A DNA stretch of 64,000 bases. Origin: an uncultured Candidatus Rokubacteria bacterium (GTDB taxonomy: Bacteria > Methylomirabilota > Methylomirabilia > Rokubacteriales > CSP1-6). The translations under genes and the position numbers were made by a program. Location: the NCBI GenBank assembly GCA_963789955.1, contig CAWBMV010000015.1:160001-224000 (forward strand), given 5' to 3'. Positions 4,877 to 57,164 of this stretch are shown here, piece by piece (positions within the stretch are counted from its first letter, which is position 1; each line of letters opens with the position of its first letter). Below the pieces are notes generated by a model. The model was not told the origin of the DNA and did not search any database. It saw only the letters and a program-made list of their open reading frames with translations.

Positions 4877-4885
4877 GACACGGCG

Positions 4886-35474: not shown

Positions 35475-35626
35475 CCGCCCTTGGTCCCGGCCTGCTGAGC
35501 ATTTTTTGCCGATCGGCCCGATCCGCGTTTGACCTGACGCGAGCTTCCGCTCGCCGCGAGCGCCCTGAGCACGTTCCCGCTCTGGATCCGCGTTCGGCAT
35601 CGGCGTTGCTACAGGAGGTTATCCTC

Positions 35627-36829
35627 GTGGCTGATCACTCCACGTGCCTCTGCATCGTGTCTCGCGATCGGCTCCGCGGTAACGATTTCATCGCGGCCCT
35701 CGGCGCATCGATGCGCCCGCATGAGCAGCTCGAGATCATCGTGGACCGGAGGAGCGGCGAGCCCTCGCATGACTGGGATCCCACGCAGGACCGGCGCCGC
35801 CGGCCTCAGGTCGATCTCGCGCTGAAGGCAAACGGCTTCGCCGTCGTGCCGGCGCCGAGCCAAGGTGGCCGCCGTACGCCGACGTCTCTGCTGGTTCCCT
35901 CGGCCCCGGGCTCGGACGTCAGGTTTGACGGTGGGTTCAGCGGCGGGTTTGACGACGGGGATGACGACGAGGAGAGGCTCGAGGCGATTCGCAGCTTCAA
36001 GCGCGAGCGCTCGAGCAATCTGGTCCCGTGGCTCATCGCGGCGCTGGTCGCCGTTGCCGCGGCGGCGTTCATCTTGTCGCCGACAGGTTACGCGCTCAAG
36101 CAGACCGTCGCACAGCACATGGCGACCGATAGCACGAGCTCCTCGAGCGCAACGGCCTCCTCGAGCCCCCCGGCGACGGCGCCACCGTCGAACCCGGCGC
36201 CGGCGCCTCAGACGCGGGCGCCGGTCGTCGCCGACACGCCACCGGCTGCCGACGCTCCCGCGCGGGCGCCGGCGACTGAAACACCCCAGGTCGACCGACC
36301 GCTTCGCGGACCGGCTTCGCCCCCCGAGCCCGCGCCGCCGCGAGAGGCCGTGAGGGTCGATCCGTCGCGCGAGGCGGGAGCGCCGACATTCGAGAGCAGC
36401 GGGTCATTGGGAACGTCGACCGCACCAGGCGCCGCACGGCGATCGCGCTCGACGGAAACAGCTCGGCCGAGCACGAGCACGCCGATGCCGAGACAAGCCG
36501 CCGTCGCGCCGCCGCCGTCAGCGCCGTTGTCCAGATCGGTCTCGCCGCGGTTCGCGGGGCTGCCTCGCGTCGAGCTCAGCCGCGAGGCGGGCTCGTCAGG
36601 CGGGACGTACTCCGCGCGCATCGTGGACCCGGCGGGCAAGCCGCTGCCGGACGCCGAAGTCTTGCTCCTCGCTCGCATGCCGGACGGCACCGTCGAGAAC
36701 GTCCGCATGGACTTCTACCCGGATCGCGGAACCTATCGCGGCTCGCTGCCGACGGCGTCGTCACCCGTCGATATCCGGCTGCGTGTGATCACGGGCGACA
36801 AACGAGTCGAGATTCCACTCGGGCCCTGA
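35627..36829 (+). CDS. Bitopic hypothetical protein: Arg-rich N-domain, TM, Pro/Ala linker, C-terminal YtkA/FixH-like beta domain
   Basis: CAGGAGG RBS; LEIIVDRR...DRRRRPQVD; TM WLIAALVAVAAAAFIL; DPAGKPLPDAEV...ARMPDG...GTYRG. Confidence 0.7.
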   Translation: MADHSTCLCIVSRDRLRGNDFIAALGASMRPHEQLEIIVDRRSGEPSHDWDPTQDRRRRPQVDLALKANGFAVVPAPSQGGRRTPTSLLVPSAPGSDVRFDGGFSGGFDDGDDDEERLEAIRSFKRERSSNLVPWLIAALVAVAAAAFILSPTGYALKQTVAQHMATDSTSSSSATASSSPPATAPPSNPAPAPQTRAPVVADTPPAADAPARAPATETPQVDRPLRGPASPPEPAPPREAVRVDPSREAGAPTFESSGSLGTSTAPGAARRSRSTETARPSTSTPMPRQAAVAPPPSAPLSRSVSPRFAGLPRVELSREAGSSGGTYSARIVDPAGKPLPDAEVLLLARMPDGTVENVRMDFYPDRGTYRGSLPTASSPVDIRLRVITGDKRVEIPLGP

Positions 36830-36857
36830 CCGCGCGCGGCGCCCCAAGGCGGACACT

Positions 36858-37682
36858 ATGACTACCTCGCGCAGAAGCCTCTGCATCGTGTCGCGCGATC
36901 CGTTGCAGTGCAGCGAGCTGGTCCTGAGCCTGCAGGCTTCGCTGGATCCTGATGACGAGGTCGAGATCGTCATGGATCGCCGGCGTGCGGGGGACGTGTT
37001 CGACACGAAATCCGGAGCACCCGCGGCGGTGTCCGTCGAGCGCCGCCACAATCCGGACGTCGATCTCGCAGTGAGGACCAAGGGCTTCGCGATCGTGCCG
37101 GCCGTGCCGATGACGTCTCGCCGTCGGGAGGAGCCCGACGCCGAAGAGCGCGCGCGTTTCGAGAACATCCTGAGCTTCAAGCGCCGGCACGAGTCACGAT
37201 CGGGGCGGGTCGTCGGTGACGCCGGCGCCGTCATGGTGGCGCTCATCCTGGCGCCTCCCCCGAACGGATTTTCCGCTCGCGTCCTCCGTGATGTGCCGTC
37301 GTCAGCGGAAGTGACTCGGCCTGAGGCCTCGAGCCCGGAACCCCGGCTCGGTCCGGCCGATCCATCCGTGGCGCCCGGCGCGTCCGGGCTCACCCCATCG
37401 GCGTCGCACGTCCCCAGCGCCGGGACCGCGGCTCTCACGCGGCCGAGTCCGGCGAAATCCGCGGTGACGCGGACCGGGGATCCATCGAGCGCGAGCGGCG
37501 CGATCGAACTCTACGCGGCCCGCGTCGGGGACGCGACCGAGCGCGTCGTGTCGAAAGCCAAGGATCTGATCGATCGCGTCAAGAGCGAAGTGATCGGCAG
37601 CGCCCCGATGAACGTCGGGCCAGAGCCGCCGGCACGCACGGTTCCGATCACCGGCAAGCGTCGTCCCGCCGATTCTCCGTAG
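36858..37682 (+). CDS. Hypothetical protein, paralog of the upstream gene's N-domain
   Basis: LCIVSRD...VEIVMDRR...ERRHNPDVDLAVRTKGFAIVPA...ENILSFKR. Confidence 0.7.
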   Translation: MTTSRRSLCIVSRDPLQCSELVLSLQASLDPDDEVEIVMDRRRAGDVFDTKSGAPAAVSVERRHNPDVDLAVRTKGFAIVPAVPMTSRRREEPDAEERARFENILSFKRRHESRSGRVVGDAGAVMVALILAPPPNGFSARVLRDVPSSAEVTRPEASSPEPRLGPADPSVAPGASGLTPSASHVPSAGTAALTRPSPAKSAVTRTGDPSSASGAIELYAARVGDATERVVSKAKDLIDRVKSEVIGSAPMNVGPEPPARTVPITGKRRPADSP

Positions 37683-41014: not shown

Positions 41015-41539
41015 CTAGCCCGTTGCCGCCTGCGCGGACGGCTCACTGGCGACGCGTGTCAGCGGCCGCTTGATGCCCGCGCGATTGACCCAGTACGAGC
41101 AGACCTGGGCGTGCGCGGTGACCACCGTGGTGAGATCGCTCCCGCAGAGCGGGCAGGGGAACATGCCGGGCTCCGAGCGCGAGATCCAGCCGAGCCGGTA
41201 CGTGTTCTGGCATCTCTGGCAGGGAACGATGTGCTGGCTGCAGCACAGGAACAGGATCGCCTTCGAGTCCGGATCGTCGAAATCGACCTTCGCCGTGGTG
41301 CGGGGAACCGCGATCCACCGATCGACCTTCAGCTCCGCGTCTCCGTCGAGCCGGGTTCGTCGATCGCCACGGCGCCGATCGGGACGGTAGGCACCGTCCG
41401 TCGCGCGCCGGTCCTTGATCCGGCGGTCGACGATCACCTCGACCGTCGCGTCATCCGCGAACGTGTGGCTCAGCGACCGACACGCATCCTCTCCACTTCT
41501 CGGGACCACGATCAGGATCGAGCGCCCACCGTCGTGCAT
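41015..41539 (-). CDS. Hypothetical protein: Arg-rich DRR domain plus Cys/His zinc-finger-like domain
   Basis: VEVIVDRRIKDRR...DRRRGDRR; CCSQH..PCQRC...CPLC...H...C; AAGGAG RBS. Confidence 0.7.
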   Translation of the reverse strand: MHDGGRSILIVVPRSGEDACRSLSHTFADDATVEVIVDRRIKDRRATDGAYRPDRRRGDRRTRLDGDAELKVDRWIAVPRTTAKVDFDDPDSKAILFLCCSQHIVPCQRCQNTYRLGWISRSEPGMFPCPLCGSDLTTVVTAHAQVCSYWVNRAGIKRPLTRVASEPSAQAATG

Positions 41540-41610
41540 GGCCTGACTCTCCTTAGGTGAGCACAAAGCTTACTCCGAAGGCGTCGGGAAACCAGCAAGA
41601 ACTATTGGCA

Positions 41611-41678: not shown

Positions 41679-42068
41679 CTATCTCGCCCAGGCGCGATAG
41701 ACCGTGCCGACCGCCGCGCGGAGCGCGGTGCGGACCGCATCGTTGTCCGCCTGCGGCTCGCCGAGTAGCACGATGAAACCCACGGGAGTGCTTCCGAGAA
41801 ATGCGGTGCCGCTCACGCTGGCGAACTGCGCCATCGGAAACGTGCCGCGTCGAAGCTGGGGACCGCGCAGCTCGAGCTCGCGTCCGAGCGTCGCGGCGAG
41901 CGCGGACAGCGGCTCCGCCTCGACTTCGCGCGGAAGATCGGCGGCGATCACGAGGCCGTCGGGCGCGACGACGAGTCCTCCCGTGATGTGCTCGAGCTTC
42001 ATGAGCTCCGCGAGCAGCGCGCGAAGGTCGCGTCCGAGCGCCGGGCGCGCGGCGACGGCGGTGCTCAC
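41679..42068 (-). CDS. Roadblock/LC7 (MglB/MglC-like) protein
   Basis: ITGGLVVAPDGLVIAADLP..VEAEPLSALAATL; start overlaps the upstream stop. Confidence 0.82.
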   Translation of the reverse strand: MSTAVAARPALGRDLRALLAELMKLEHITGGLVVAPDGLVIAADLPREVEAEPLSALAATLGRELELRGPQLRRGTFPMAQFASVSGTAFLGSTPVGFIVLLGEPQADNDAVRTALRAAVGTVYRAWAR

Positions 42069-42942
42069 GCGAGCTCCGAGCGGCAGCTGCCCCACACACG
42101 CTCCAGGTGGGAGACCGCGGTCGCGGCCGTCACGTCGCGATCGAACGCCAAGGTGAGCAGCGCCGCGTCATCGGTGCGGAGGTACGTCGTCTCCGCGGCG
42201 CCCTCGATCACCGCGTGGCGCAGCGGACCGAATCCGGCTCGCGCGAGTACCGCGGTCGCGATGCGCGCGAGCTTCACCGCGCGGGCGGCGACCGCTTCGG
42301 TCCGAGGTCCGCGCGGCTCGGCGAAGACGAGGGTCGCGTCCGGTCGCATGAACAGTGCTTCGCGGCTTTCGGTCGGCAGCTGCAGACGATCGGCGGGTGT
42401 CGCAGCCTTCGCCGCCGGCGCCTGCGTCGCGGCCGGTGTCGTTGGCCGTCGTCACCGCCGGGATCCTCGCCGGTGTCGCGATCGGTATCGCCGCCGGCAC
42501 GACCACCGGTGTCGCCGCGCGCTTGGGGTCGGCGCTCGGCGCCAGATCTCGCGTGACATCCAGGAGGGCGCGTGCCTCGGGAAAGTCGGGATAGCGCGCC
42601 AGCGCTCGCGAAAGCAGGTCACGACAGGTCTTCGCCTCACCGTCCTCGAGCGCGAGGCGCGCAAGCCCCAGCAGGGCTCGGGGTTGAGTCGGCTCGAGCG
42701 CGAGAACTCGCTCGAACGATGTCCGCGCCTGGCCGCTTTCACGCAGGGTCATGTGGAGCGAGCCCGGCGAGCAGGTGGCCGACGACGCTGCCGGGCTCCC
42801 GGATCAACGCGTCCGCCACGAGCTCGGCCGCGTCCTCGAAGCGCCCTTCGTCCCGGAGGCGTTGCGCCTGTCGGAACATCTGGGCGCTCGTCGGCTGCCG
42901 CCGCCTGCCCCCGAGCCGGTGCCAGATCCGCGCGAAGACCAT
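42065..42942 (-). CDS. TPR protein with C-terminal roadblock-like domain, frameshifts near 42760 and 42410
   Basis: TPR helices (ARTSFERVLALEPTQPRALLGLARL, ALARYPDFPEA); C-term ALFMRPDATLVFA...GFGPLRHAVIEGAAETTYLR. Confidence 0.68.
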
Positions 42943-43050
42943 GACGCATTCTCAGACTTTCAAAATCTTCGCCACGTGGCTTTGACGCGCCTTCGCGCCT
43001 GCCCTGTCGCGTGCTTGACGAAGACGAGTCACCCTGGCACGACACGCCAT

Positions 43051-43085
43051 TGACAGAAGTTGTCATCGAAACGGACCAGTTGTCA
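43051..43085. promoter_or_regulatory. Operator-like site in the divergent promoter of the chemosensory/Mgl locus
   Basis: TGACA-N5-TGTCA palindrome (43051-43065); AGTTGTCA repeated 20 bp apart. Confidence 0.5.
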
Positions 43086-43238
43086 CGAAGGCCGGTTCGC
43101 GCGGGCGCCAAGTCGCCTTACTGCCGCGTTTGTTCGAGCGTAAAGCCGCGCCCCACCGACGCTCGCGCTGGCAGATGGGTTGCACCGAGGCACATATGGC
43201 GGACACGCCGGCAGAACGCCACGGGAGGCCTGCGTCTG

Positions 43239-43601
43239 ATGCCCAAGGTGATGGTGGTCGACGACGCCTATTCGGAGCTTCAGGTCATGGAGACCATTCT
43301 CCGGTCGGCCGGGTACGACGTCCTGACCTACCTGGACGGAGACCAGCTGGAGGAGAAGATCGTCAAGGAGCGGCCCGACGTCGTGCTGCTCGACATCGTG
43401 ATGCCCAAGCGCAACGGCTTCGACGCGCTTCGCGGCGTACGCCGGGACGAGCGCACCAAGCAGGCGCGCGTGATCGTGGTGAGCTCGAAGAACCAGGACA
43501 GCGACCGCGTCTGGGGCATGCGGCAAGGCGCGGACGAGTACCTCGCGAAACCCTTCACTCCCGATCAGCTGCTGGCGCTCGTCCGGCGGTTCCTCCGATG
43601 A
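43239..43601 (+). CDS. Single-domain response regulator, PilH-like CheY
   Basis: VVDD, LLDIVMP, SSKNQDSDRVWGMRQGADEYLAKP (PilH-type motif). Confidence 0.9.
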   Translation: MPKVMVVDDAYSELQVMETILRSAGYDVLTYLDGDQLEEKIVKERPDVVLLDIVMPKRNGFDALRGVRRDERTKQARVIVVSSKNQDSDRVWGMRQGADEYLAKPFTPDQLLALVRRFLR

Positions 43602-44062
43602 CGACGAGCCTGCTCGACCCCGCGGCGGTCCGGGCGTGCGTGTTCGCGCTCGCCGGTCAGCCGTTCGCGATCGACGTCACCCAGGTGCGGGAGGTGGCGA
43701 TCTTCGAGGAGTGGACCACGGTGCCGCTGGCGCCGCCGCATCTCGTGGGTGTCGCCAATCTACGCGGCGACGTCGTGCCGATCGCGGACGCCCGGGCCGT
43801 GCTCGGGCTTGCGGCGCGCCGGGGCGCGCGCAAGGTGTCGACCTTGATCGTGGAGGCCGAGGGATTCGAGGTGGCGCTCGTCATCGACGGCGACGTCAGC
43901 CTCGAGGCCTTCGGCGGCATCGTGACCCTCGACGAGTCGAGCCCGCAGCCGCACGCGCGGTGGGCGCTCGGCTTCTTGCCGGATGGCGAGCGGCTCGTCC
44001 CGCTGCTCGATCCGGGTCGGCTTCTGCGCGCGCTGAGAGAAGCGCAGCGGGAGGAGGAATGA
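43598..44062 (+). CDS. cheW: CheW (PilI-like) adaptor
   Basis: FAIDVTQVREV, VPLAPPHLVGVANLRGDVVPI. Confidence 0.92.
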   Translation: MTTSLLDPAAVRACVFALAGQPFAIDVTQVREVAIFEEWTTVPLAPPHLVGVANLRGDVVPIADARAVLGLAARRGARKVSTLIVEAEGFEVALVIDGDVSLEAFGGIVTLDESSPQPHARWALGFLPDGERLVPLLDPGRLLRALREAQREEE

Positions 44063-44079
44063 ATGACGAGGAGGGCGGC

Positions 44080-45385
44080 ATGACGATGAAGCGGCGGACG
44101 GTGCTCAAGGTGCTCTCCGGGGCCGTGGCGGGCAGGCGTTCTCGGCCGGAACCAGCGAGCCTGGGGCCAGACGCCCGTCTCCAAGGTCGTCGATCTGCGC
44201 GGCACGCCCGGGGTGAGCGCCCGGGACATCAAGATCGGGATGAGCGCCGCGTTCAAGGGCTCCTCGGCCGGCCTCGGCATCGAGCTCTACCGCGGCGCGC
44301 TGGCCTACTACTCCGAGGTCAACCAGCGCGGCGGCATCCACGGCCGCTCGATCTCGGTCGTGGCGCTCGACGACGGCTACGAGCCGACGCCGTGCATCAA
44401 GAACACGATCGACCTCGTCGAGCGCGAGCAGGTGTTCTTCCTCTCGAACTACGTCGGCACGCCGACCCTCACGCGCGCCCTGCCGGTGATCAAGCGCTAC
44501 GCCGACCGCCAGGTGATCCTCGTCGGCAACTTTACCGGCGCTCAGCCGCAGCGCGAAGAGCCCTACCTCGACCAGGTGTTCAACATCCGCGCCTCCTACC
44601 GCCAGGAAATGATGGCGCTGGTCGAGCGGCTCTGGCAGACGGGTGTCCGCAAGTTCGGCGTCTACTATCAGATCGACGCCTACGGGCGCAGCGGCACCGA
44701 CGGCGTCGCGCGCGGCCTCGCGCAGCGCGGGGCGCGCATCGCCGCCGAGGCCACCTACGTCCGCGGCGCCACGTTCGAGGATGACATGACTCCGGCCGTG
44801 CAGGCCCTCCGGCAGGCCGGCGTCGAGGCGGTCCTGTGCACGGGCGCCTATCAGGGCTGCGGCGCGTTCATCCGGACGGCGCGCGATCACGGTTGGGCCG
44901 TACCCATCTCGAACGTATCGTTCGTCGGCTCCGAGGCGATGCTGAGCCTTCTCATGCGCCACGGGCAAGCGAGCGGGCGTGACTACACGCAGGCGCTCGT
45001 CAACTCGCAGGTGGTGCCGAGCTACGACGACGTGAGCCTGCCCGGCGTCGTGGAGTACCGCACGCTGATGGAGAAGCACAACCCGCAGGTGCCGGACGCG
45101 CTGCGCGACGCCAAGCAGGCGCCCGAGCAGCTGAGCTTCCGAAGCCTCGAGGGCTTCGTCAACGCCCGCGTGATCGTCGAGGGCCTGCGCCGCACCGGGC
45201 CGAACCCGACGCGCACGGCCTTTCGGCAGGCGCTGGAAACGCTCAAGAACTTCGACCTCGGTATCGGAGCGCCTCTCACGTTCGGACCGGAACGACATCA
45301 GGGACTCGACAACGTGTACTTCACCAGAGTGGTGAACGGTCGATGGGCCCCCATTACAGACTGGGCGGCGGCGGTGAAAGCATGA
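44080..45385 (+). CDS. Tat-exported periplasmic ligand-binding protein (LivJ-like type I fold), frameshift near 44135
   Basis: [10 protein letters not shown] signal; [41 protein letters not shown]. Confidence 0.85.
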
Positions 45386-47154
45386 GCAAGCGAACCGTTC
45401 GACTCGGCCTGCTCGGAAAGATCATCCTGTTCCTGACGGTGACCCTCGTGCCGCTGGCGGCGATCACCTGGTGGATCTCGATCCGCGCCTTGACCACGAA
45501 CCTGACGGACGAGTTCACCTCGAAGGGGACCGCGATCGCCAAGAGCCTAGCGAGCTCGGGCGTCGATCTGCTGCTGACGCGCGATGCGTCGACGGTGCAG
45601 GCGATCGTCGACCAGTTCGCCGCCATCAACGGCGTCAAGTACGTCATCGTGTACGACCCGCAGAAGACGCTCGTGGCCCACACCTTCTCGCCGCTGGTGC
45701 CGGCCGGCATCGTCGAGCGAAACCTGGTGCCGGGCGAGGTGGCGCAACAGGTTCGGGACGTCGCGTACGCCGATCCGGTCACCGGTGTCGTCCAGCAGAT
45801 CATCGACATCGGCGTGCCGGTGCTGGCGGGCCAGCTCGGAACGGTGCGCGTGGGGATGGACCGCTCGATCATCACCGCGGCGGCCGCCAGGTCCGGCCAG
45901 AACCTGCTGCTCGTATTCGGCGGCGTCGCGCTGCTGGCGGTCCTCGCCGGCGCGGTCTTCGCCCACCAGATCACCAAGCCGGTCATCCAGGTCGTCAAGG
46001 TCGCCGAGCGAGTCGGACAGGGCGACCTCTCGAGGCTGGTCACCGTGAAGTCGCACGACGAGATCGGGCAGCTCGCCGCCACGTTCAACGACACCGTGGT
46101 GCGCCTGCGTGCCCTGGTCCAGACCGAGACGGAGCGCGACGAAGAGAAGCGCAAGCGTGAGGAGCTGCAGCGCAACATCACGCGCTTCCTCGACACCGCC
46201 ACCGAGATCGCGCAGGGCGACCTGACCAAGCGCGGTCAGGTGACGTCCGACGTGCTCGGCAGCGTGGTCGACGCGATCAACGTGATGGTCGGCGAGCTGG
46301 CGACCATCATCAACGACGTGCGCGACACCGCGCAGCAGGTCCTGACGAGCGCGACCGAGATGATCGGCGCCATGGAGTCGACGGCCGGCGGCGCCCAGAC
46401 GCAGTCGCGTGAAGCGGTGGGCGTGAGCGACGCCATGGAAGGCCTGAGCCGCTCGATGCGGCGGGTCGCCGAGAACGCGGAAGCCTCCGCGGCGGCCGCG
46501 AAGCTGACGCTCGACTCCGCCACCAAGGGCGAGCACGCGGTGCGCGCCAGCCTCGCCGGCATGCAGCGCATCCGGGGCGAGGTGCAGGGCATCTCGAAGA
46601 AGGTCAAGAGCCTGGCCGATCGCTCGCTCGAAATCTCCGAGATCGTGAACACGATCGAGGACATCGCCTCGCAGACGAATCTGTTGGCGCTCAACGCCGC
46701 CATCGAGGCGGCGGGCGCCGGCGAGTCCGGCCTGCGGTTCGCGGTCGTCGCCGAAGAGGTTCGCAAGCTGGCCGAACGCTCCGGCAAGGCGGCCAAGGAC
46801 ATCGTCGTGCTGATCAAGTCGGTGCAGGCCGAGACGCAGCAGGCGGTCGTCGCGATGGAAGAGGGTACCCGTGAAGTCGAAGCCGGCTTCAAGGTCACGG
46901 TCGAGGCCGGCGAGCGCCTGCATCAGATCGGCGAGATCTCCCAGAAGTCCGCCGCGCTGGCCATCGAGATCTCGGAGGCGACGCAGGACCAGGTGCGAGG
47001 CGTCGAGGGCGGCGCGGTCGCGGTCCAGTCGATCGCGGGCGTGGCGGTCGAGACCGAGAAGGCGGTTCTCGAGACGCGCAAGACGATGGACCAGATGGTC
47101 CGGGTGGCCGAGGCGCTCACGGCGAGCCTCGCGCGCTTCAAGCTGGCCACCTAG
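45382..47154 (+). CDS. Methyl-accepting chemotaxis protein, PilJ-like
   Basis: Two TMs, periplasmic domain, [28 protein letters not shown], tip [17 protein letters not shown]. Confidence 0.95.
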
Positions 47155-47181
47155 GCGCTCGATCGACTGGAGGCGGGTTGC

Positions 47182-50104
47182 GTGGCTGACGGCGATCGGC
47201 AGTTTCTCCTGAGTGTCTTCCTGATGGAGGCGTGGGATACCCTCGCCGCCGTCGAGGAGGGCCTCGCCACGCTCCGCACTACGTCGGATCCGACCGCGGT
47301 GGTCGAGCATCTGGCGGTCGTGACCCACCGGCTCCGTGGCTCGGCGGCTCTCAGCGGATTTCCACAGGTCGCGGGCCTGGCCACCGCCATGGAGGAGGCG
47401 GTCGAGCGAGTGGCCGCCACGCCCGCGGACGGCGACCGCCGCTCGCTGGGGGCGCTCGCCGACATGGTGTTCTGGCTCAAGACGGCGCTCGACGTCATCG
47501 GCGAGACGGGTGTCGAGGACGCCGAGGCCATCGCGGAATCGCTCGCGGGTCTGGCCACGTCGACGCCGCGCGTGCCGCGTGACGAAACGTCGCGGCGGCT
47601 CGCCGAGCTCGACCGGTTCTTTACCGACCAGGCGGACGTCCTCGAATACTTCGTCCCGGAGGCCATCGAGCACCTCGAAGCGATGGCGCAGTCGCTGATC
47701 GCGCTGGAAGGCGAGGGCTCGACCGAATCGGAGATCGCCGGGCTGTTCCGCGCGGTCCACACGCTCAAGGGCGCCGCCTACACCGTCGGCTGCGGAATGA
47801 TCGGCGACCTCGCCCACCGGGTCGAAGACATGCTCGGCGAGGTTCGTGAGCGCCAGCGCCCGCTCGATCGCGCCGCGATCGAGACCGTGTTCGCCGGCCT
47901 CGATGCGCTGCGGCTTCTCGTGCGAAGCGGTGAGGATCGCGCCGATACGCGCGCCGCCGCCTACGAGCACGCGATGGCGCTGCTCGACGCCTTGCCGGCC
48001 ATCGGCGCGCCGAGCGCGCAGATGGCGCCGCAGCAGAGCGTCGAGGCGGCCGTCGCACAGATCGCCGCCGCCACGGCGGACGCCGTCGCGCCGAGCCAGC
48101 CGGCGGTGGCGGAGACTCCCCAGCGCCTGGATCCAGTCGTCGCTGCCGAACGCCTCGCCGGCGCGACCGAGCGCGTCGAACCGGCTACGCGCGGTCCGGA
48201 GCGCCGGTCTTCTCGCGACGCCGCCGCCCGCAGGGTGCGCCCGAGCATCCGCGTCAGCCTCGATCGGCTCGACGCGCTGATGAATCTCGTCGGCGAGCTG
48301 GTGATCACGCGAAGTCGTCTCGAGCGTCATCTGGGTCAGCTCGAGCAGGCCGGTGAGCTCCTGTCGTTTACCCAGTCACGCATGACCCAGACCGTCGCCG
48401 AGTTCGAGTCGAAGTACGCCGACCGGATGGTGCCGCCGGTCCGGCCCCAGGGCGGCGGCTCGCTCGAGCCGGGGGTCTCTCCGCTGGGAGAGTTCTTCGA
48501 CGAGCTCGAGTTCGACCGCTACGACGATTTCAATCTGCTGGCCCGACGCGTCGGCGAGATCTCGAGCGACCTCACGGAGATCCAGCACGAGCTGACCGGG
48601 CTGGTGCGAGTCGTCCGCGAGGACGCCGGCGGCGTGCAGCGGCTCAGCGGCGAGCTGCGCGGCCAGATCACGCGCGCCCGCATGGTGCCCGTCGGCCGTC
48701 TGTTCGCGCCGTTCGTGCGGATGGTCCGGGACGGCTCGCGGGCGGCCGGCAAGAGCGTCGTGCTCGAGGTCCGGGGTGAGACCGTCGAGCTGGACACCAC
48801 GATCGTCGAGCTGATGGCCGATCCGCTGATCCACCTCGTCCGGAACGCCATCGCCCACGGCATCGAGCCGGAAGAGGTGCGCCGCCGCGAGGGCAAGGCG
48901 CCGCAGGGCACGATCCATCTGGGCGCCGCGCACAAGGGCGGCTCGATCTACATCGAGGTGGCCGACGACGGTCGCGGCATCGACGTGGAAGCGGTCGGTG
49001 AGGCGGCGCGGCGTGGCGGATTCGTCACGGCGGAGACGCTCGCGCGTCTCGGCGAGCGCGACATCCTCGATCTGATCTTCCTCCCCGGCCTGACGACCGC
49101 GAGCTCGGTGACGACGGCCGCGGGCCGTGGCGTCGGCATGGACGTCGTGCGCACGAACATCAGCCGTCTCGGCGGCGAGATCGAGGTCCAGACCGAGGCG
49201 GGCCGTGGGACGCGCTTCCGGATTCGGCTGCCGCTGACCGTCGCCATCTCCGATGCGCTCATGGTGAACGTCGGCGCCCAGACCCTGGCGATCCCCGTGC
49301 CGTCCGTGAAGGGCGCGATCAACCTGCGAGCCCGAGGACGTCCGCACCGTCGACGGCGTGGAGTCGGTCGAGATCGAGGGCGAGAGCGTCGACCTCGTGC
49401 GCCTCGACCGCGTGCTGCAGATGCCGGCGCGCGCCGCGGGCGGCTCGCTGTCGATCGTCACGCTGAGAACCGGGCGCAAGACCCTGGCGGTGGTCGTGGA
49501 CGAGTTCCTGAACAAGGAAGAGATCGTCATCAAGAACCTCGGCGCATTCCTCCAGGGCATCGGACCCTTCTCGGGCGCGACCGTCACGGGACAGGGGCGC
49601 GTCATCTTGCTGCTCGACTCGATGAAGCTCCTCGAGATGAGCACCGCCGGGCCCTGGCCGCGCACGGCCGAGATCCGCCGCGAGCCCGAGGCGGTGGCGG
49701 CGCCGGCGTCCGACGCGAGGCGTCGCGTTCTGCTCGTCGACGACTCGGTCAGCGTGCGGAAATTCGTCGGCGGCATGCTCGAGCGCGCGGGCTTCCACGT
49801 CGTCGCGGCGCGAGACGGCGCCGAGGCGCTCCAGCAGCTGGCCGAGCAGTCGGTCGACGTCATCGTCACCGACCTGGAAATGCCGCGCCTCAACGGCTAC
49901 GAGCTGATCCGCGGCCTCAATCGCGAGCCGACCACGTGCGACCTGCCGGTGGTCGTCCTCACCACGCGCGCCGGCGCCAAGCACGTGAACCTCGCGCGCG
50001 AGCTGGGCGTGGAGCACTACGTCGCCAAGCCCGTCGACGAGGCGAGCTTCGTCCAGTTGATCGAGTCGCTCGCCGTCGCGGCGCCGGCGCGGGCGGGAGC
50101 CTGA
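47182..50104 (+). CDS. cheA: CheA/ChpA-like hybrid kinase (2 Hpt, dimerisation, HATPase, CheW, REC), frameshift near 49325
   Basis: HRLRGSA, HTLKGAA, LMNLVGELVI, ELEFDRYDDF, HLVRNAIAHGIE, GRGVGMDVV; REC TDLEMP..LTTRAGAKH. Confidence 0.93.
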
Positions 50105-50111
50105 GGCGCCG

Positions 50112-50900
50112 ATGCCGCGCGTCATCCTGATCGACCCGGATCGTACGGCGCTCGCGGCGCTGCAGGCCGCGCTCGGACAGGCGGGCTTCAGTGATGTGCT
50201 CGCCGTGACCAGCGGCTCCTTCGCGCTCACGATGCTCGAGCGGAATCGGCCCGACCTCATCGTGAGCCGTGTGGGCGTGCCCGACATCGACGGCTACGAG
50301 CTGTGCTCGATCGTCCGCAAGGACCCCTTGATGACCGGCGTGCTGTTCCTCCTGCTGGCGAGTCCGGGTGACGAGGCGGCCGCGACCATGCTCGAGGACA
50401 AGCCGGATCAGACGCTCGCGGGCGACTTGCCGCTGACCGCGATCGTCTCCGAGGTGGCCACCCTGCTCGGACGCGGCAAGGCGGCGGCGCCGGTCCCGAC
50501 ACAGGAGCCGATCGCTCCGGCCGCGCAGCCCGACGGGGCTCACGGTCTGCGGGGGTCGCTGACCGTGATGGAGCTTCCGGACATCACCCAGGCGATCGCG
50601 CTCGGCGGCAAGACCGGCCAGCTCGTCGTGACTCTGTCGGCGGGGCGCGGCTCCGTGTTCTTCGATCGCGGCCGGGTCGTGCACTCGGAATTCTTCGGAC
50701 TCATCGGCGAGACGGCCTTCCAGGCGCTCCTGGTCGCCGCGCACGGTGAGGCGAACGGCAGCTTCGCGTTCAACCCGCTGGACGCGGCGGCGGCCAACGG
50801 CGTGAAGACGATCCACCGGGATCTGAAGCAGCTTCTACTGAGCGCCGCGGCTGGGATCGACGAGGGCCGCGCAGACGCGGCCGTGGCACCCATCGCCTAG
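50112..50900 (+). CDS. Degenerate receiver + DUF4388 (PATAN-like) protein
   Basis: REC fold with LIVSRV at the phospho-Asp position; LRGSLTVMELPDITQAIALGGKTGQL...FFDRGRVVHS...GSFAF. Confidence 0.8.
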   Translation: MPRVILIDPDRTALAALQAALGQAGFSDVLAVTSGSFALTMLERNRPDLIVSRVGVPDIDGYELCSIVRKDPLMTGVLFLLLASPGDEAAATMLEDKPDQTLAGDLPLTAIVSEVATLLGRGKAAAPVPTQEPIAPAAQPDGAHGLRGSLTVMELPDITQAIALGGKTGQLVVTLSAGRGSVFFDRGRVVHSEFFGLIGETAFQALLVAAHGEANGSFAFNPLDAAAANGVKTIHRDLKQLLLSAAAGIDEGRADAAVAPIA

Positions 50901-50912
50901 GAGGGCGAGCTG

Positions 50913-51818
50913 ATGCAGAAGGTCCTCGTGGTGGACGACAGTCTGAGCGTCAGGAAAGTGGTCGAGAAGGCGCTCGAGGGCCGCGGGCTTCAAGTGCTCG
51001 CCGCCGCGTCCGGCGCCGAGGCGATCCAGATGATCGATCGCGACCGGCCCGACGTCGTGATCTGCGACGTCATCCTGCCCGACAAGGACGGCTATCAGGT
51101 CTGCCAGTACGTCCGTGCGCATCCCGCCATCGGCGCGACACCGGTTCTCCTGATCTCCGGGATCGACAACGGCACCGTCCAGGCGCGGGCCGCCGAGGTG
51201 CGATCCGACGAAGTGATGTTCAAGCCGTTCGGCGTCGAGGACCTGGTGCGGAAGATCGACACCTTGCTCGCCAAACGCTCCAACGGCGTCAAGCCATCCA
51301 CCGGGCCGCCGACCCCCGCGCCGGCGTCTTTGACCGTACCGGCCTTGACCCCCGCGCCGGCGCCGACGTCTGCGCCGGCATCCGCGCCGGTGCCGATCTC
51401 TGCGCCGGCCACCACACCGGCGCCCGCACCGGCGCCCGCGGCGTTTGCGCCCGCGGCGCACGATCAAAGTCTCAAGCAGAGGCTTCAAAGCCTCGCCGGC
51501 ACGCCCGGAGTCCGCTTCGTCGTGCTCACCGATCGCGAGGGGTTTCTCATCGAGACGGCCGGGGATCTGGCGCCGGAAGCCGACGAAGTGGCCGGCGCGC
51601 TCGCGTCGTGTCTCGCCGAGGCGTCCGACGGCATCGGCCGCGAGCTCGGCCAGGGCCAGCTGGTCGGAACGATCCTCGAATACGAGGCGGGCACCTTGCT
51701 GCTGCACGGCGTGGGGCCCTCGGCGTTGCTGGCCGTCCTGGTCCGCGATCAAGGCGCGCTCGGGAAGGTGCGCTACTACGTGAGAAAAATCGTGCCGGAG
51801 CTCGCGCGGGCTCTCTGA
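50913..51818 (+). CDS. RomR-like response regulator with Pro/Ala linker and C-terminal roadblock/LC7 domain
   Basis: VDDSLSVRKVV, VICDVILP, KPF; PAPA linker; VVLTDREGFLIE...IGRELGQGQL...ILEYE...ALGKVRY. Confidence 0.85.
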   Translation: MQKVLVVDDSLSVRKVVEKALEGRGLQVLAAASGAEAIQMIDRDRPDVVICDVILPDKDGYQVCQYVRAHPAIGATPVLLISGIDNGTVQARAAEVRSDEVMFKPFGVEDLVRKIDTLLAKRSNGVKPSTGPPTPAPASLTVPALTPAPAPTSAPASAPVPISAPATTPAPAPAPAAFAPAAHDQSLKQRLQSLAGTPGVRFVVLTDREGFLIETAGDLAPEADEVAGALASCLAEASDGIGRELGQGQLVGTILEYEAGTLLLHGVGPSALLAVLVRDQGALGKVRYYVRKIVPELARAL

Positions 51819-54092
51819 TGGCTCTGCCGCGCGCCTCGCGAGCGAGGTTGGTCTGGGCGCTCGAGCTGTCGCTCGGACTGGAGCTCTACGCCTGCGCGGT
51901 CCTCGCCCTGCACGCGCGTGGGCTCAGGGCGACTCCACTCGACGCCTCGCTCGCGCTCGTGCTGCCCGCGCTGGTGATCCCGCCGGTGTTCTACGTGCTC
52001 GTCGCGCTGGTCATCGTGCGTCCCCTCGCGCTCGTGCCGCTGATCGGCGCCGCGGCCGCGATGTGCGGGCTTCACGGATCGCTCGTCGCGGCGACCGGGC
52101 GCACTGTTCATGATCCCCGACCTCCTCGACTACGGCGCGGCCGTCGCCTTCGCGCTCTGGGGCTCGCCGGCCGTCACACTGCTCCAGCTGACGGCGACGC
52201 CGCTCGTGTTCGCCCGTCTCCGGCCGCTGGTGTCGGCGCCCCGTCCGCCGCGCGGCGACGCACGCGATGCACGGCCCGCAGTGACGCAGCGCCGGGTCGA
52301 GGCGCCAGCGATGACCGGCGCGCCACGGCCGCTGGCGCCCGCGGAGGCGGCGGCCGCCCCCGCGCTCCACCCGAATGCGCCGGCGCCGTCTCTCCGGCCG
52401 TCCACGGCACCGCCCGTTCCCGCGACCGCATTCGTCTCGCCGCTGCGAGCGGCCGCCGGCCACTCGACCACGTCGGCTCCGTCCGCCGCGCACACGGCCG
52501 CCTCGGCGCCGTCGACACCGACTGCCGTTACCCGGTCTGTGGTGTCGCCACTTCCTGCGGCCACCCGCCAGCCGGTCGCGAAGACACCGCCTGTTGTTGC
52601 GATGGCCGAGGCGAAAAGTGCGCCCGCGACGCCGGCCGAACCCACGCGAGGGGAGGCGCCATCGAAGCGGGCGCTCGACTGGGAAGAGCCGATGATCCGA
52701 GTTCCGTTCGTCCGGATCGCGGACCAGCTCCCGGTCGAGATGTTCGCGCGCGGTCCGGAGGGCCTGAAGGACACCCTGCGGCCGGGCGTGTCGCTGCTCG
52801 TGCCGAGAAAGCTGCTCCTGCCGCATCTGGGTGACGGTCTCGCGCCCGTGAAGTGGGACGTCGTCGCCGATCAGTTCCCGCTCGACGAGCTCGCCATGAC
52901 TCACGAGGAGATCGCGGAGCGCTTGCCGGACGGCTCGCTGCTCCTGCCGCTCGACGAAGTGATACCGCAGATCCCGCCCGAGCTGCTGACGCTCTCGACG
53001 CCGCCGGTCGACGTCCATCAGATCGAAGAATTTCCCGAGCCGTTCCAGCCGCACGCTCCTGCGCAACCCGATGCCGCCGGCGAAGAGACTCCCGCGGCCC
53101 ACGTCGCCCACGTCGAGTTCGCGGAGGAGCCGGAGGCTCCGGCCAATGCCGCCGAGCACGTCGATGAGGCGGAGACGGTCGACTCCGACGTCGTGGCCGC
53201 GGATCAGTCGGTCCAGCCCGAGCTGGAAGACTCGGAGCCAGAGCGTCCGACATACCAGGCGGCTGCGCTCGCACTGCCGGAGCCGGAGCGGCATCCCGAG
53301 CCCGTCAGGAGCGATCAGGCGCGACGCATCGCGGCGCTGCTGACGCCGCTGCTGAACGGGCTGGAGATCGGCCAGCGGGATGGCGCCGGCACGACGGTCG
53401 TGACGGTGATCGCGCCGACGCTCAGCGAAGACTCCGTCGTCCGGACGGCGATGCGGATCGTGCCGTTCCTCAGCGATGCGCGCTTGCCGGAGCCGGTGAC
53501 CCAGGCCACCTTGACCGCGGCCGGCACGACGATCGTGCTGACTCCGTTCGGGTCGCCCGACACCGGTGGCGCGCTCCTCGTGACGGCCGTGGCCTCGCGC
53601 GCGGGACTGGCCTGGCTGGAGCGCCTCTCGCGGACCGCGGCGCGCGAGGCGCAGATCGAGGCCGGCAACGGCAAGCACACGGGCCCCGAGAACGACTCCG
53701 GCGCTGGGCCGGAGCTGCGCGCGGCCATCGTGCCCCCCGGCGTGCGCGAGCTGGCCGACTCCTTGACGGCGTTCGGCACGGTGGCGCCGACCCTGCTGCG
53801 CGACCGGGCCGGGGCGCTCAGCGCGTGTCTGTTCCTTCCGACCTCACTCGATGCGGTCCCGCTGGCGAGGTTTGCGCGCGACCTGCACGCGGCCCTCGAG
53901 GGCACCGAGATCGGCCGGATCGCATCCGTCATCCTGAAGCTCGGTAGCCATCGGGTCGTGCTGCGCGCGATGGACGGCGTGTCCGGCACCGTGACGATGC
54001 TGGTCGGCGGCGGGCGAATCGATCGGCCGGGGCTGGCGCGGATCGAGCTCGACCGGGCCGCGACGCGGCTCGAGGCCCTGGTGGGAGGCTGA
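51818..54092 (+). CDS. Membrane-anchored hypothetical protein (about 4 TM, Pro/Ala linker, repeat domain, C-terminal roadblock-like region), frameshift near 52100
   Basis: ATG overlaps the upstream stop; hydrophobic N-terminus; C-term GTEIGRIASVILKLGSHRVVLR...RPGLARIELDRAA. Confidence 0.7.
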
Positions 54093-54095
54093 GCC

Positions 54096-54713
54096 ATGTC
54101 GGTGATCAACTACGCGAACCGGGTCATCGATTTCAAGATCGTCTACTACGGGCCCGGCATGGCCGGGAAGACGGCCAACCTGCAGTACATTCACCGCTGT
54201 CTGCCGAACGCCAATCGAGGGAACATGATCTCCCTCGCGACCGGCGACGACCGGACCATCTACTTCGACTTCCTGCCGGTGTCGGCGCTCACCGTGCGCG
54301 GATTCAAAACGCGCTTTCAGCTCTACACGGTGCCCGGTCAGGTCCAGTACAACGCGACGCGACGGCTGGTGCTGCGCGGCGCCGACGGCCTGGTGTTCGT
54401 GGCCGACTCCCAGTTCGAGCGTCTGCGCGAGAACGTGGAGAGCTTCCGGAATCTGGAGACGAATCTCCGCGAGTACGAGTCGACGCTCGACGAGATCCCG
54501 TACGTGCTCCAGTACAACAAGCGCGATCTGCCGAACCTGGCGCCGCTGACCTATCTCGAGTTCGTGCTCAATCGGCGGGCGTCGCGCGTGCCGTTCTTCG
54601 AGGCGTCGGCCATCGATGGCAAGGGGGTCTTCGACACACTCAACACCGTGTCGCGTATGGCGCTCGCGAGCGAGTTCGGCGTCGGACGGGAGAAGCGCAA
54701 TGAAGCCTCGTAA
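54096..54713 (+). CDS. mglA: MglA-family small Ras-like GTPase
   Basis: KIVYYGPGMAGKT, DRTIYFDFLP, LYTVPGQ, FVADSQ, NKRD, EASAIDGKGVF. Confidence 0.95.
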   Translation: MSVINYANRVIDFKIVYYGPGMAGKTANLQYIHRCLPNANRGNMISLATGDDRTIYFDFLPVSALTVRGFKTRFQLYTVPGQVQYNATRRLVLRGADGLVFVADSQFERLRENVESFRNLETNLREYESTLDEIPYVLQYNKRDLPNLAPLTYLEFVLNRRASRVPFFEASAIDGKGVFDTLNTVSRMALASEFGVGREKRNEAS

Positions 54714-55182
54714 TACGGTCATCCAGCAGCAGGACGCGGCGCGGATTCACGAGATCCTGTCGCGCTTCCTCGGCGACTCGAGCGCCGCCGAAGCCCTTCT
54801 GATCGACCGCGGCGGCCAGCTCCTGGCGATGGACGGTGACGCCCAGGCGCTCGACGCGGTGTCGATCTCGGCGCTGGCGGCCGCCGCCTTCAGCTCCACC
54901 GCCGCGATGGCCCAGCTGCTCGGCGAGCCCGAGTTCAGCGTGCTGTTCCACGAGGGCACCAAGCGCTCGATCCACGTCTCGACGGTGGACGACGAGGCCA
55001 TCCTGCTCGCGATCTTCGACGAGCGGACCACGGTGGGCATGGTGCGGCTGTTCGCCACCGAGGCGAGCCGCGCCGTCGGTGCGGTGCTGGGCGAGGCCCG
55101 CGCCCGCCCGAAGCCCCAGGCCGAATTCGCCGCTCCGCTGAACGACGCCGAGTCGCGCGCCGCGTGGACACCCCCGAGCTGA
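54700..55182 (+). CDS. mglB: MglB-family roadblock/LC7 protein (putative GAP)
   Basis: LLIDRGGQLL, ISALAAAAFSST..MAQLLGEPEFSVLFHEG, IFDERTTVGMVRL. Confidence 0.92.
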   Translation: MKPRNTVIQQQDAARIHEILSRFLGDSSAAEALLIDRGGQLLAMDGDAQALDAVSISALAAAAFSSTAAMAQLLGEPEFSVLFHEGTKRSIHVSTVDDEAILLAIFDERTTVGMVRLFATEASRAVGAVLGEARARPKPQAEFAAPLNDAESRAAWTPPS

Positions 55183-55183
55183 T

Positions 55184-55950
55184 ATGCGGCAGGTGCGAGT
55201 CGGCGGACGCTATGACGAAAGCCGCGAGCAGCGGCTGTGGGCGGCGCTCCTCGGGCTGATCGCGCTCGCGACCGTGGGCATCGCGGTCGTCATCTGCGAT
55301 GCCGGCAGCGGATTCTGCCATCCGACCCTGCTGCGGCTGGGCGCCGGGTTCATCGCCGTCGTGATCGCGGTCCGGCTGGGCCGGCCCGTGACGCGACGGC
55401 TGCGAAGCGTGCGTAACGGCCGTCGGGGCGAGCGCCTGGTCGCCGATCTCCTGCGCGGCCTACCGGACGACTACTGGCTCGTCAACGACGTGTCGCTGGG
55501 ATTGGCGCGCGGCACCATCGATCACGTGCTGATCGGGCCATGCGGCGTCGTCGTGATCGATACGAAAGATCTCGCGGGCCACATCCGATGCTGGGAGAAC
55601 AGCTGGTCCGTCAACGGATATCGCCAGGCCGACATCAGCCAGCGCGTCAACTCCTGGGCGTGCGCCGTCCGATACTTCCTGAGCGAAAAGCACCCGGACC
55701 TGGCCGACCTCGGCGCTCCGGTGGGTGGAGTCGGTGGTCGTGTTCACCCATCCGCTCTGCCACGTCGAAGCGAGTGACACGCGGGCCGACGGTCGTCCGC
55801 TACTCCCAGCTGTATCAAGCGGTGGTCGAGCTCTCGCGCAAGCATCACATGGCGTCGTCGACGGCGAGCCTGCTCGCACGGACCCTGGCGAAGTCGCAGG
55901 CGGACGACGGCGCCGTGGTCGAGGGCGATCCTCTCACATCCGTGTCTTGA
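55184..55950 (+). CDS. Membrane-anchored NERD-domain protein, frameshifts near 55710 and 55790
   Basis: Two TMs; [27 protein letters not shown]. Confidence 0.8.
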
Positions 55951-57164
55951 TCCGCTCGATCGCCTCTTCGGTCTGCGCGCGTGAGCCGAACGCGGTGAGC
56001 CGGAAATAGCCCTCGCCGCTCGGCCCGAAGCCGGCGCCCGGCGCGCCGACCACATTCGCTCGCTCGAGCACCCGATCGAAGAAATCCCAGGACGCGACCG
56101 AGCGCGGCGTGCGGAGCCAGATGTACGGCGCGTTGCGGCCGCCGTAGACGGTGAAGCCCGCGGCCGCGAGCCCGGCGCCGATGATCCGCGCGTTCTCCAT
56201 GTAGAAGTCGATCAGCGCCCGCACTTGCTTCTGCCCCTCGGGCGTGAAGACGGCCGCCGCGGCCTTCTGGATGATGTAGGGCGGCCCGTTGGATTTCATC
56301 GCCGTCCGGCGAGTCCAGAGCGCGTTGAGGGTCATCGTCTTGCCGTCGGCGGCCCGCCCCCGCAGCTCCTTCGGCACGATCGTGTAGGCCAGGCGCATCC
56401 CCGTGAAGCCGGCGTTCTTCGAGAAGCTGCGGCACTCGATCGCGACCTCGCGCGCGCCGTCGATCTCGTAGATCGAGTGCGGAACCTCCGGGTCGACGAT
56501 GTAACCCTCGTAGGCGGCGTCGTACAGGATGACGGCATCCTCCGCGCGCGCGTACTCGACCCAGCGGGCGAGCGCCTCGCGCGTCGCCACGGCACCGGTC
56601 GGGTTGTTCGGATAGCAGAGGTAGATCAGATCCACGTGCCGGTCGGGCAGCGCCGGCTGGAAGCTGTTCTCGGCGGTGCAGGGCAGGTAGACGATGCCCG
56701 CGTAGCGGCCCGCTCTCGTCGGCGCGCCCGCTGCGCCCGGCGACGACGTTGCTGTCGGCATAGACGGGGTAGACCGGATCCATGAGCGCGACGACGCAGT
56801 CCTGCGCGAAGATCTCCTGGAGGTTCGCGCTGTCGCTCTTGCCGCCGTCGCTCACGAAGACCTCGTCGACGGCGATCTTCACGCCGCGCGAGCCGAAGTC
56901 GTGGGCCGCGATGTCGGCGCGCAGGAACTCGTAGCCGACGTACGGGCCGTAGCCCTTGAAGGTCTCGCGCCGCGCCATGTCGTCCGCGGCCTCGTGGATC
57001 GCGCGAACGACGGCCGGCGGCAGGGGCTGGGTCACGTCGCCGACGCCCAGGTCGACCAGGCGAACGTCGGGGTGCGCGTCGGTGAACACCTTCGTCCGGC
57101 GCCGGATCTCGGCGAAGAGATAGCTCTGATTGAGGTTCAGGTAGAACTCGTTGAATCGCGGCAC
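55934..57164 (-). CDS. dapL: LL-diaminopimelate aminotransferase, frameshift near 56715
   Basis: [71 protein letters not shown]. Confidence 0.93.

Follow-up and report, generated by a model that had tools for sequence, protein, structure and literature searches.

A conserved operon of Candidatus Rokubacteria in which a probable type IV pilus-class chemosensory pathway adjoins an optional MglA/MglB module

Introduction

The Pil-Chp pathway of Pseudomonas and the Tax pathway of cyanobacteria represent chemosensory control of the type IV pilus (Tfp) class. Bacteria with Pil-Chp steer their pili without MglA, and Pseudomonas aeruginosa is described as lacking homologues of the polarity module found in Myxococcus (PMC12632253, used, like the other papers cited here, for the part of its text that was available). 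In the Frz-MglA/MglB/MglC/RomR-RomX system of Myxococcus xanthus, Frz is a subfamily of the alternative cellular function (ACF) class and the mglA gene lies apart from those of its partners (PMC3441718, PMC4316618, in part); the available part of PMC10329633 calls it unknown by what means the output regulators of Frz affect the polarity module of MglA. Here we describe a cluster of 13 genes at positions 41679..55950 of a 64,000-nucleotide stretch of contig CAWBMV010000015.1 (hereafter the window) from an uncultured Candidatus Rokubacteria bacterium, in which a chemosensory operon, several roadblock proteins and the genes for MglA and MglB stand together. It is a real and conserved combination of known parts, apparently unpublished, which we read as a chemosensory system controlling type IV pili, to which an MglA/MglB module is an optional addition.

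With Pil-Chp and Tax the operon shares the Tfp-type layout of CheA, a methyl-accepting chemotaxis protein (MCP) of PilJ length, a PilH-like CheY, the gene order and a PATAN/DUF4388 output domain. Pil-Chp has both PilG and PilH, whereas the operon has one free CheY and, in addition, a fusion of a receiver (REC) with a roadblock domain, a membrane scaffold and a GTPase; its PATAN domain lies C-terminal to a pseudo-receiver, unlike that of PatA-type proteins, which is N-terminal to an active receiver. With the Myxococcus system it shares a Group 1 MglA, MglB and extra roadblocks, and it differs from that system in its probable Tfp class, its single operon, the mglA-mglB order and the lack of a recognisable MglC orthologue. 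By analogy with SgmX, FrzS and SopA, which recruit PilB in Myxococcus (PMC11580455, PMC10329633, in part), its TPR protein and its pseudo-receiver may be candidate links to PilB.

The chemosensory half has a close counterpart in Deinococcus aetherius (DAETH_RS17150-17180), where cheY, cheW, a binding protein gene, an MCP gene, a gene for a CheA-REC with two Hpt domains, and those for the pseudo-receiver-DUF4388 and REC-roadblock proteins occur as the same set in the same order, with identities of 48, 23, 60, 46, 38, 28 and 29%, respectively. The DR_A0355 region of D. radiodurans has the same order, with three MCPs and no binding protein. No scaffold, mglA, mglB, stand-alone roadblock (RB1), TPR-roadblock or pilB gene adjoins the Deinococcus che locus, and there is no mglA on the replicons that bear it. 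Deinococcus shows surface motility (PMC12393216, in part), and the literature searched yielded no functional study of the Tfp-class che locus of Deinococcus or Meiothermus. The scaffold-mglA-mglB loci of Verrucomicrobiota and Armatimonadota, which are known from genomes, provide the closest MglA relatives among these systems (54-64%), share a 125-amino-acid (aa) scaffold domain with the window and usually have no chemosensory cluster. Earlier papers already note REC-Robl_LC7 fusions, as well as PATAN genes close to Group 1 MglA/MglB (PMC4316618, in part), and twitching genes and MCPs in Rokubacteria (PMC5712423, in part); a Tfp-class operon joined to mglAB was not found in the literature searched, most subscription papers and one supplement of PMC4316618 lying outside its scope.

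Gene content and conservation

The 13 genes that the preliminary description had listed from the sequence were all present in the order and orientation given, as judged by Pfam, NCBIfam and PDB matches: eleven lie on the plus strand, from cheY (starting at 43239) to the NERD gene (ending at 55950), and a TPR-roadblock/RB1 pair is divergent from them. From cheY to NERD the successive junctions measure -4, -4, -4, 27, 7, 12, -1, 3, -14 and 1 nucleotides, the junction between cheW and the binding protein gene having been taken from the sequence (ATG at 44059). This clustering is not due to chance, because the gene order is conserved in relatives. Catalytic and phospho-acceptor residues are intact on a residue check. 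The phospho-Asp of CheY is kept in 21/21 homologues; this CheY, 48% identical to its D. aetherius counterpart and 45% to the PilH-position regulator of Acinetobacter, matched generic receivers and nothing more specific among PDB sequences. A sigma-70 scan of the locus was uninformative, with 0 promoters and terminator-like sites no more numerous than in shuffled sequences. Contigs from RNA libraries (four runs) cover all 30 bins of the locus and bridge several junctions, and one of them also crosses the divergent gap between cheY and the TPR gene; DNA carry-over is therefore possible, and co-transcription is not established by these contigs.

We surveyed 150 genomes of the phylum besides the host genome (G000, 87% complete). 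MglA was matched in 71 genomes, of which 41 with at least 67% identity were kept as orthologues and 30 at 47-59% were dropped; CheA was matched in 99, of which 57 with at least 49% were kept and 42 dropped. These tallies include genomes marked as unpublished: G058 belongs to every set, G029 and G100 to the RB1 set, and G029, G047 and G143 to the raw counts for the phylum; no conclusion rests solely on them. Metagenome loci matched by MglA may overlap the surveyed genomes and were left out of the counts. Related genomes are not independent, and the co-occurrence counts are to be read as patterns, not as statistics.

Orthologous CheA and MglA occur together in 40 genomes, and in 31 of these the genes lie on the same contig and strand, 3.6-6.1 kb apart, so the che and mgl halves are, as expected, conserved together within Rokubacteriales. 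In the other nine they are on different contigs, with mglA starting less than 2 kb from the contig start in seven. The order scaffold-mglA-mglB right behind the REC-roadblock gene is kept across many genera, and wherever a Rokubacteriales locus that was read extends far enough, the scaffold comes after REC-roadblock, whether mglA is there or not. REC-roadblock is present in 55 genomes, 54 of them with CheA and 39 with MglA, while RB1, found in 47, accompanies MglA in 40/41 genomes and occurs in 4/17 of those having CheA without orthologous MglA. On the CheA tree, the closest relatives show at least two clean losses of mglAB, in which the chemosensory core stayed. In loci of a family that we call f2, the DUF4388 gene is mostly gone.

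Judged by these gene distributions, the locus is two separable modules: module A runs from cheY to REC-roadblock, and module B comprises the scaffold, mglA, mglB, RB1, TPR-roadblock and often a second pilB. The unit had been pictured as self-contained, a view that we no longer hold, as the core occurs on Deinococcus replicons without mglA, the Mgl half occurs without this CheA in an order of Verrucomicrobia, and NERD is a lineage-specific passenger. NERD was rejected as a core part on the ground that none but the closest relatives have it and that it persists where mglAB has been lost. We also rejected equating the locus with the recR-mglB-mglA loci that other families of Methylomirabilota have, in which MglA is 52-57% identical and no che neighbours were seen in 3/3 loci read. 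In one genome (G012; locus L115, 14007-20000), sequence starts suggest a Tad/Flp pilus-like gene set after mglA in place of mglB/pilB.

In the Verrucomicrobia order, MglA is found in 87/121 genomes and a related CheA in 1/121, where it is adjacent to mglAB. The locus concerned (L077, 1-11100) has REC-DUF4388, cheY, cheW, MCP, cheR and cheA (40% identity) genes divergent from scaffold-mglA-mglB. Armatimonadota-type loci (L057, 150-20566; L076; L046) contain several roadblocks, DUF4388 genes and mglA inside a pilT-pilMNOPQ-pilB cluster, and L057 and L076 have an extra, second GTPase-like gene.

Chemosensory class

The pathway very probably belongs to the Tfp class, as already proposed when it was first likened to Pil/Chp. 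This assignment is by proxy, from the nearest classified relatives and from the layout, not from the class-specific models of Wuichet and Zhulin; the names PilH, PilJ, ChpA, WspA and WspE were assigned to reference proteins from gene order, their records naming them generically. The ten best matches of the window CheA in a comparison against plasmids are all from Deinococcus, and 21 of the 25 Deinococcota CheAs in Table S2 of PMC10782961 (in part), including D. radiodurans DR_A0355, are of type cheaTfp. Of these, 20 have a dimerization domain of 137-149 aa and mostly two Hpt domains, whereas the remaining four of the 25 are ACF, with 62-73 aa. The corresponding region of the window CheA measures about 144 aa, against 61 in Escherichia coli, and the protein shows the whole Tfp layout as defined in that paper: several Hpt domains (two), a C-terminal REC, no P2 and a long dimerization region.

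The MCP aligns with the PilJ-position receptor of Acinetobacter with 0 gaps over 324 aa (36% identity), compared with 31% and 21 gaps for a WspA-position MCP of the ACF class and 28 gaps for E. coli Tar. Its length is that of PilJ, a receptor of what we take to be the 40-heptad type. It has transmembrane (TM) helices and an sCache domain, not the architecture of the cytoplasmic Frz-type receptor, and the MCP tree has weak support within the group. CheAs with several Hpt domains and a REC occur within the ACF class as well. Relatives that carry cheR and cheB keep the order Y-W-M-R-A-B-W, and the window is without both genes; cheR and cheB are present in loci L119, L203 and L204, cheR in L122, and cheB in L113 and L007. 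There is a single free CheY, the other receivers being fused to PATAN or roadblock domains, so the pairing of PilG with PilH, two free single-domain regulators, that a strict definition of Pseudomonas-type Pil-Chp demands is not found.

MglA, the roadblock proteins and the scaffold

MglA and MglB match the solved proteins of Thermus and Myxococcus. R53, T54 and Q82 of MglA are invariant in 29/29 sequences, and with its coupled mglB it falls into Group 1, which PMC4316618 (in part) defines by an intrinsic arginine next to the G2 threonine and a TVPGQ motif at G3; MglB, as a homologue, is the presumed GTPase-activating protein (GAP) for MglA. The closest MglA relatives, at 71-94% identity, are from Candidatus Rokubacteria/Methylomirabilota.

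The preliminary description had spoken of receiver-roadblock fusions in the plural. One such fusion exists, with its phospho-acceptor Asp52 in 59/59 matches; the other fused receiver is the pseudo-receiver-DUF4388/PATAN protein, in which the phospho-Asp is replaced in 52/52 homologues, by Ser in 50/52. The REC-roadblock profile matches CvnB5, MglB and other roadblocks, the score for Myxococcus MglB (E 2e-11) being about level with that for any solved roadblock, and matches MglC weakly (E 0.006); for the RB1 profile, MglC was not listed at E<=1. The roadblock of the TPR protein had no Pfam or PDB sequence match and is suggested by ESM Atlas features, with 0.97 similarity to TPR+Robl_LC7 clusters (one cluster being 63% Robl_LC7), and weakly by hhalign (E 0.015).

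The C-terminal 261 aa of the scaffold are modelled (pLDDT 77.5) as two roadblock topologies (helix, two strands, helix, three strands, helix), and its top ten structural matches are all roadblock-type chains, with MglB the best (Z 6.7, root-mean-square deviation 2.9, 109 residues aligned). The first of these domains also resembles MglC (Z 5.2, deviation 3.0, 101 aligned), and the scaffold homologue of Verrucomicrobia matches Pfam Robl_LC7 at E 1.5e-6. The roadblock-like domains in the locus number six because the two scaffold folds are counted in. For the 125-aa domain no fold match was obtained (best Z 2.6; ESM Atlas below 0.9), a result that does not establish a new fold. This domain is present in the mglA-adjacent scaffolds of three phyla, is kept where mglA was lost recently, and is missing in 8/8 scaffolds of the f2 type; it is a candidate adaptor for MglA or PilB.

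Pili in the host genome and in relatives

Examination of the host genome for pilus genes, suggested earlier, revealed on another contig a full type IVa cluster in the order pilB-pilT-pilC-pilS-pilR-pilA-pilD-pilMNOPQ. FlhA, CheR and CheB had no match in this genome (87% complete), which has one CheA, one MCP, one MglA, one DUF4388 gene and four Pfam roadblocks, as well as clusters with type II secretion-like ATPases. Among the 57 genomes with orthologous CheA, pilM occurs in 43. In seven genomes (G131, G136, G027, G082, G088, G030 and G125), one contig carries both pilM and the che-mgl operon, with about 45-85 kb between them.

Directly behind mglB, a pilB gene is found in 8/12 Rokubacteria loci outside the NERD-bearing group. 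This second PilB scores above the TIGR02538 cut-off; in five genomes tested for it, it was additional to the main pilB in three and the only copy in one, the fifth being without mglA. Its N-terminus is homologous to the TPR-like N-terminus of a TPR-MshEN protein encoded in the Verrucomicrobiota/Armatimonadota loci (E 1e-8, Verrucomicrobia protein), where scaffold-mglA adjoins pilB, pilT or pilMNOPQ. Both forms of PilB carry an MshEN-type motif, which points to input by c-di-GMP. As side observations, a second free-standing TPR-roadblock/RB1 pair, 75-77% identical, lies away from the operon on host contig C37 (185200-186290; L093, 7307-8286), and another TPR gene ends a pilMNOPQ-aroB string (L092, 159-785; host contig C34, about 380200-380800), a position presumably like that of the pilus-linked TPR genes of Deltaproteobacteria.

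How the two modules may be coupled

Tentatively, and at slightly less than an even chance, we favour a reading in which the two modules share one operon and are coupled indirectly through the membrane scaffold, converging on PilB, the extension motor of the type IVa pilus. The operon probably aims pili. That its output is type IV pili we regard as likely, and for placing MglA downstream of this CheA we have a modest preference. The exported binding protein would present a small ligand to the sCache domain of the MCP, and CheA, with CheW, would autophosphorylate and, going by what is known of these families, pass phosphate to CheY, to its own REC and to REC-roadblock. The pseudo-receiver-PATAN protein would be the likely contact to PilB/PilC, as PatA-type regulators suggest, PATAN being reported to bind PilB1 in Synechocystis (bioRxiv 2021.06.11.447907, in part). 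From module B would come the MglA/MglB switch of Group 1, accompanied by RB1 and TPR-roadblock and, in many relatives, also by a second, dedicated PilB. At the joint, a REC-roadblock dimer may stack on the roadblock-like pair of the scaffold, and its phosphorylation would alter how MglB, together with RB1, is held there; we liken this to the stacking of RomR, MglC and MglB in Myxococcus, where stacked roadblock dimers place GAP activity (PMC10329633, in part). MglB thus placed would set the site at which MglA-GTP builds up and PilB extends pili, and where mglAB has been lost, module A might still reach the pili by way of PATAN and the scaffold. A bolder version, which we consider rather doubtful, would make this a third pilus-steering design, in which a Tfp kinase phosphorylates a roadblock that stacks, Ragulator-like, on a membrane scaffold of tandem roadblocks and so gates MglB/MglA and a dedicated, TPR-capped PilB.

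Several observations weigh against the favoured reading. The coupling is read from genes, the host being uncultured. A quick CheA tree with few references joins Rokubacteria and Deinococcus (SH-aLRT 89) and leaves the deeper nodes, hence the class, open. Orthologous MglA is missing from 17/57 genomes with CheA. In 11 of these 17 the locus was read and other genes follow the core, two loci end at a contig edge and four were not read; the MglA profile found nothing in 5/5 such genomes that are at least 95% complete, although the same profile matched 87/121 genomes of the Verrucomicrobia order. The che-mgl link is therefore dispensable. No scaffold adjoins the Deinococcus core, whose REC-roadblock therefore needs another or an unlinked partner. 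The structural matches of the scaffold are moderate, all with Z below 8 and so under the level that excludes a merely common arrangement; Foldseek returned nothing for its C-terminus at E<=0.001, and hhalign gave a weak match to the roadblock profile (probability 4.8%). The second pilB is absent from the host genome, where NERD occupies its place. Finally, pilM is present in 127/151 genomes of the phylum, so its co-occurrence with CheA says little.

Some of these points would suit parallel inputs, an unlikely but serious rival: both halves would regulate PilB and be co-located for co-expression, PATAN acting on PilB directly and MglA setting a standing pole, with the phosphate of CheA never reaching the GTPase. 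The occurrence of the core alone in Deinococcus and in family f2, of the Mgl half without this CheA in 86/121 genomes of the Verrucomicrobia order, and the repeated clean losses of mglAB would be natural if the inputs were parallel. Parallel inputs would leave less reason for scaffold-mglA-mglB to be conserved behind REC-roadblock across many genera, or for one Verrucomicrobia genome (L077) to join a related CheA cluster to mglAB independently; GTPases of this sort are, moreover, regulated by such parts as a phosphorylatable roadblock.

Direct wiring, as the preliminary description had it, we now hold improbable. REC-roadblock would itself be a GAP or co-GAP gated by phosphorylation, binding MglA either on its own or in a heterodimer with MglB, and its profile fit to Myxococcus MglB, its invariant phospho-Asp and its place two genes from mglA agree with such a role. 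Its distribution speaks otherwise: REC-roadblock tracks CheA (54/55), is well conserved in 16/55 genomes without orthologous MglA and occurs on the mglA-free replicons of Deinococcus, while it is RB1 that tracks MglA (40/41), and a canonical MglB is already there. Complex prediction for two REC-roadblock domains with MglA scored 0.28 against a mark of 0.32 and counts neither for nor against binding.

To an output other than motility, such as control of DNA uptake or adhesion by way of pili, of a secretion ATPase, of second-messenger levels or of a developmental step, with no directional steering or cell polarity, we likewise assign a small probability: the type II secretion-like ATPase clusters of the host, the MshEN-type motif in both PilB forms and the fact that polarity has not been seen in the lineage would fit it, but the features of the pathway are those of the Tfp class, pilB, pilT or pilM neighbour the Mgl half in three phyla, and the operon has no diguanylate cyclase or transcription factor, unlike the ACF comparison locus. 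Control of flagella was rejected, FlhA having no match in the host and occurring in just 2/57 genomes with orthologous CheA.

Coordinates, frameshifts and neighbouring genes

Table 1. Genes of the operon and of the divergent pair, with window positions
Feature	Position	Strand	Characteristics
RB1, stand-alone Roadblock/LC7	41679..42068	-	Pfam Robl_LC7 E 3e-5; profile against solved roadblocks E 6e-9
TPR-roadblock protein	42065..42942	-	Pfam TPR_19; +1 insertions at 42445 and 42765; intact L165 gene 270 aa
CheY, PilH-like	43239..43601	+	Pfam Response_reg; phospho-Asp52 kept
CheW, PilI-like	43598..44062	+	NCBIfam NF007903 E 1.7e-7
Periplasmic ligand-binding protein	44059..45385	+	Peripla_BP_6; twin-arginine-like N-terminus; +1 insertion at 44134
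MCP, PilJ-length	45382..47154	+	TM-sCache_3_2-TM-HAMP-MCPsignal
CheA	47182..50104	+	Hpt-Hpt-H-kinase_dim (about 144 aa)-HATPase_c-CheW-Response_reg; +1 insertion at about 49330, ahead of the CheW and Response_reg domains
Pseudo-receiver-DUF4388/PATAN fusion	50112..50900	+	Pfam Response_reg and DUF4388
REC-roadblock fusion	50913..51818	+	Pfam Response_reg and Robl_LC7; Pro/Ala linker between domains
Membrane scaffold	51818..54092	+	Hydrophobic N-terminus; Pro-rich linker; +1 insertion at 52097
Scaffold, conserved 125-aa domain	52677-53054	+	
Scaffold, two C-terminal roadblock-like folds	53307-54089	+	
MglA, Group 1	54096..54713	+	Pfam Ras; G1 lysine, Arg53, TVPGQ and NKxD kept
MglB, roadblock GAP homologue	54700..55182	+	Pfam Robl_LC7; PDB MglB E 3e-21; NF052242 E 3e-19 (below family cut-off)
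TM-NERD protein	55184..55950	+	Pfam NERD; +1 insertions at 55707 and 55788

Seven frameshifts, whose repair was recommended at the outset, interrupt five of the genes (Table 1). Each is a single extra base relative to L165, a contig of metagenome origin that shares 96.6% identity over 15.5 kb; none of the seven insertions occurs in it, and its genes are intact. They are most likely assembly errors, because the insertions are missing from L165, two further relatives agree with it wherever they can be aligned, and the neighbouring dapL gene (55845-57164) is likewise interrupted, with a +1 insertion near 56707. Decay into pseudogenes was rejected in view of the intact genes of L165. A second dapL-like gene (72%) lies on contig C34 of the host genome.

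Upstream of the cluster, three genes without a Pfam match (35606-37682 and 41015-41566) have a short N-terminal motif, VIVDRR...RR, in common, and two of them have Pro-rich linkers; the last (41015-41566) is kept beside the operon in close relatives. Two adjoining genes at 2951-5986 resemble what we take to be subunits B and A of DNA topoisomerase VI.

Significance

In this operon a probable Tfp-class kinase adjoins a phosphorylatable roadblock, a putative roadblock scaffold and MglA/MglB, and the coupling is therefore testable in vitro with a few small proteins once purified. Natural variants, some having mglAB and some not, reveal which parts belong together, and the chemosensory half, including REC-roadblock, exists in Deinococcus, which is cultured and genetically tractable. 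Should the third design prove true, it would provide the direct step from phosphorylation to a small GTPase that the Frz system of Myxococcus has not yet yielded, and the scaffold domain, of an undescribed fold, would be an adaptor for MglA or PilB. For an uncultured soil lineage, the operon offers a first model of directed movement.

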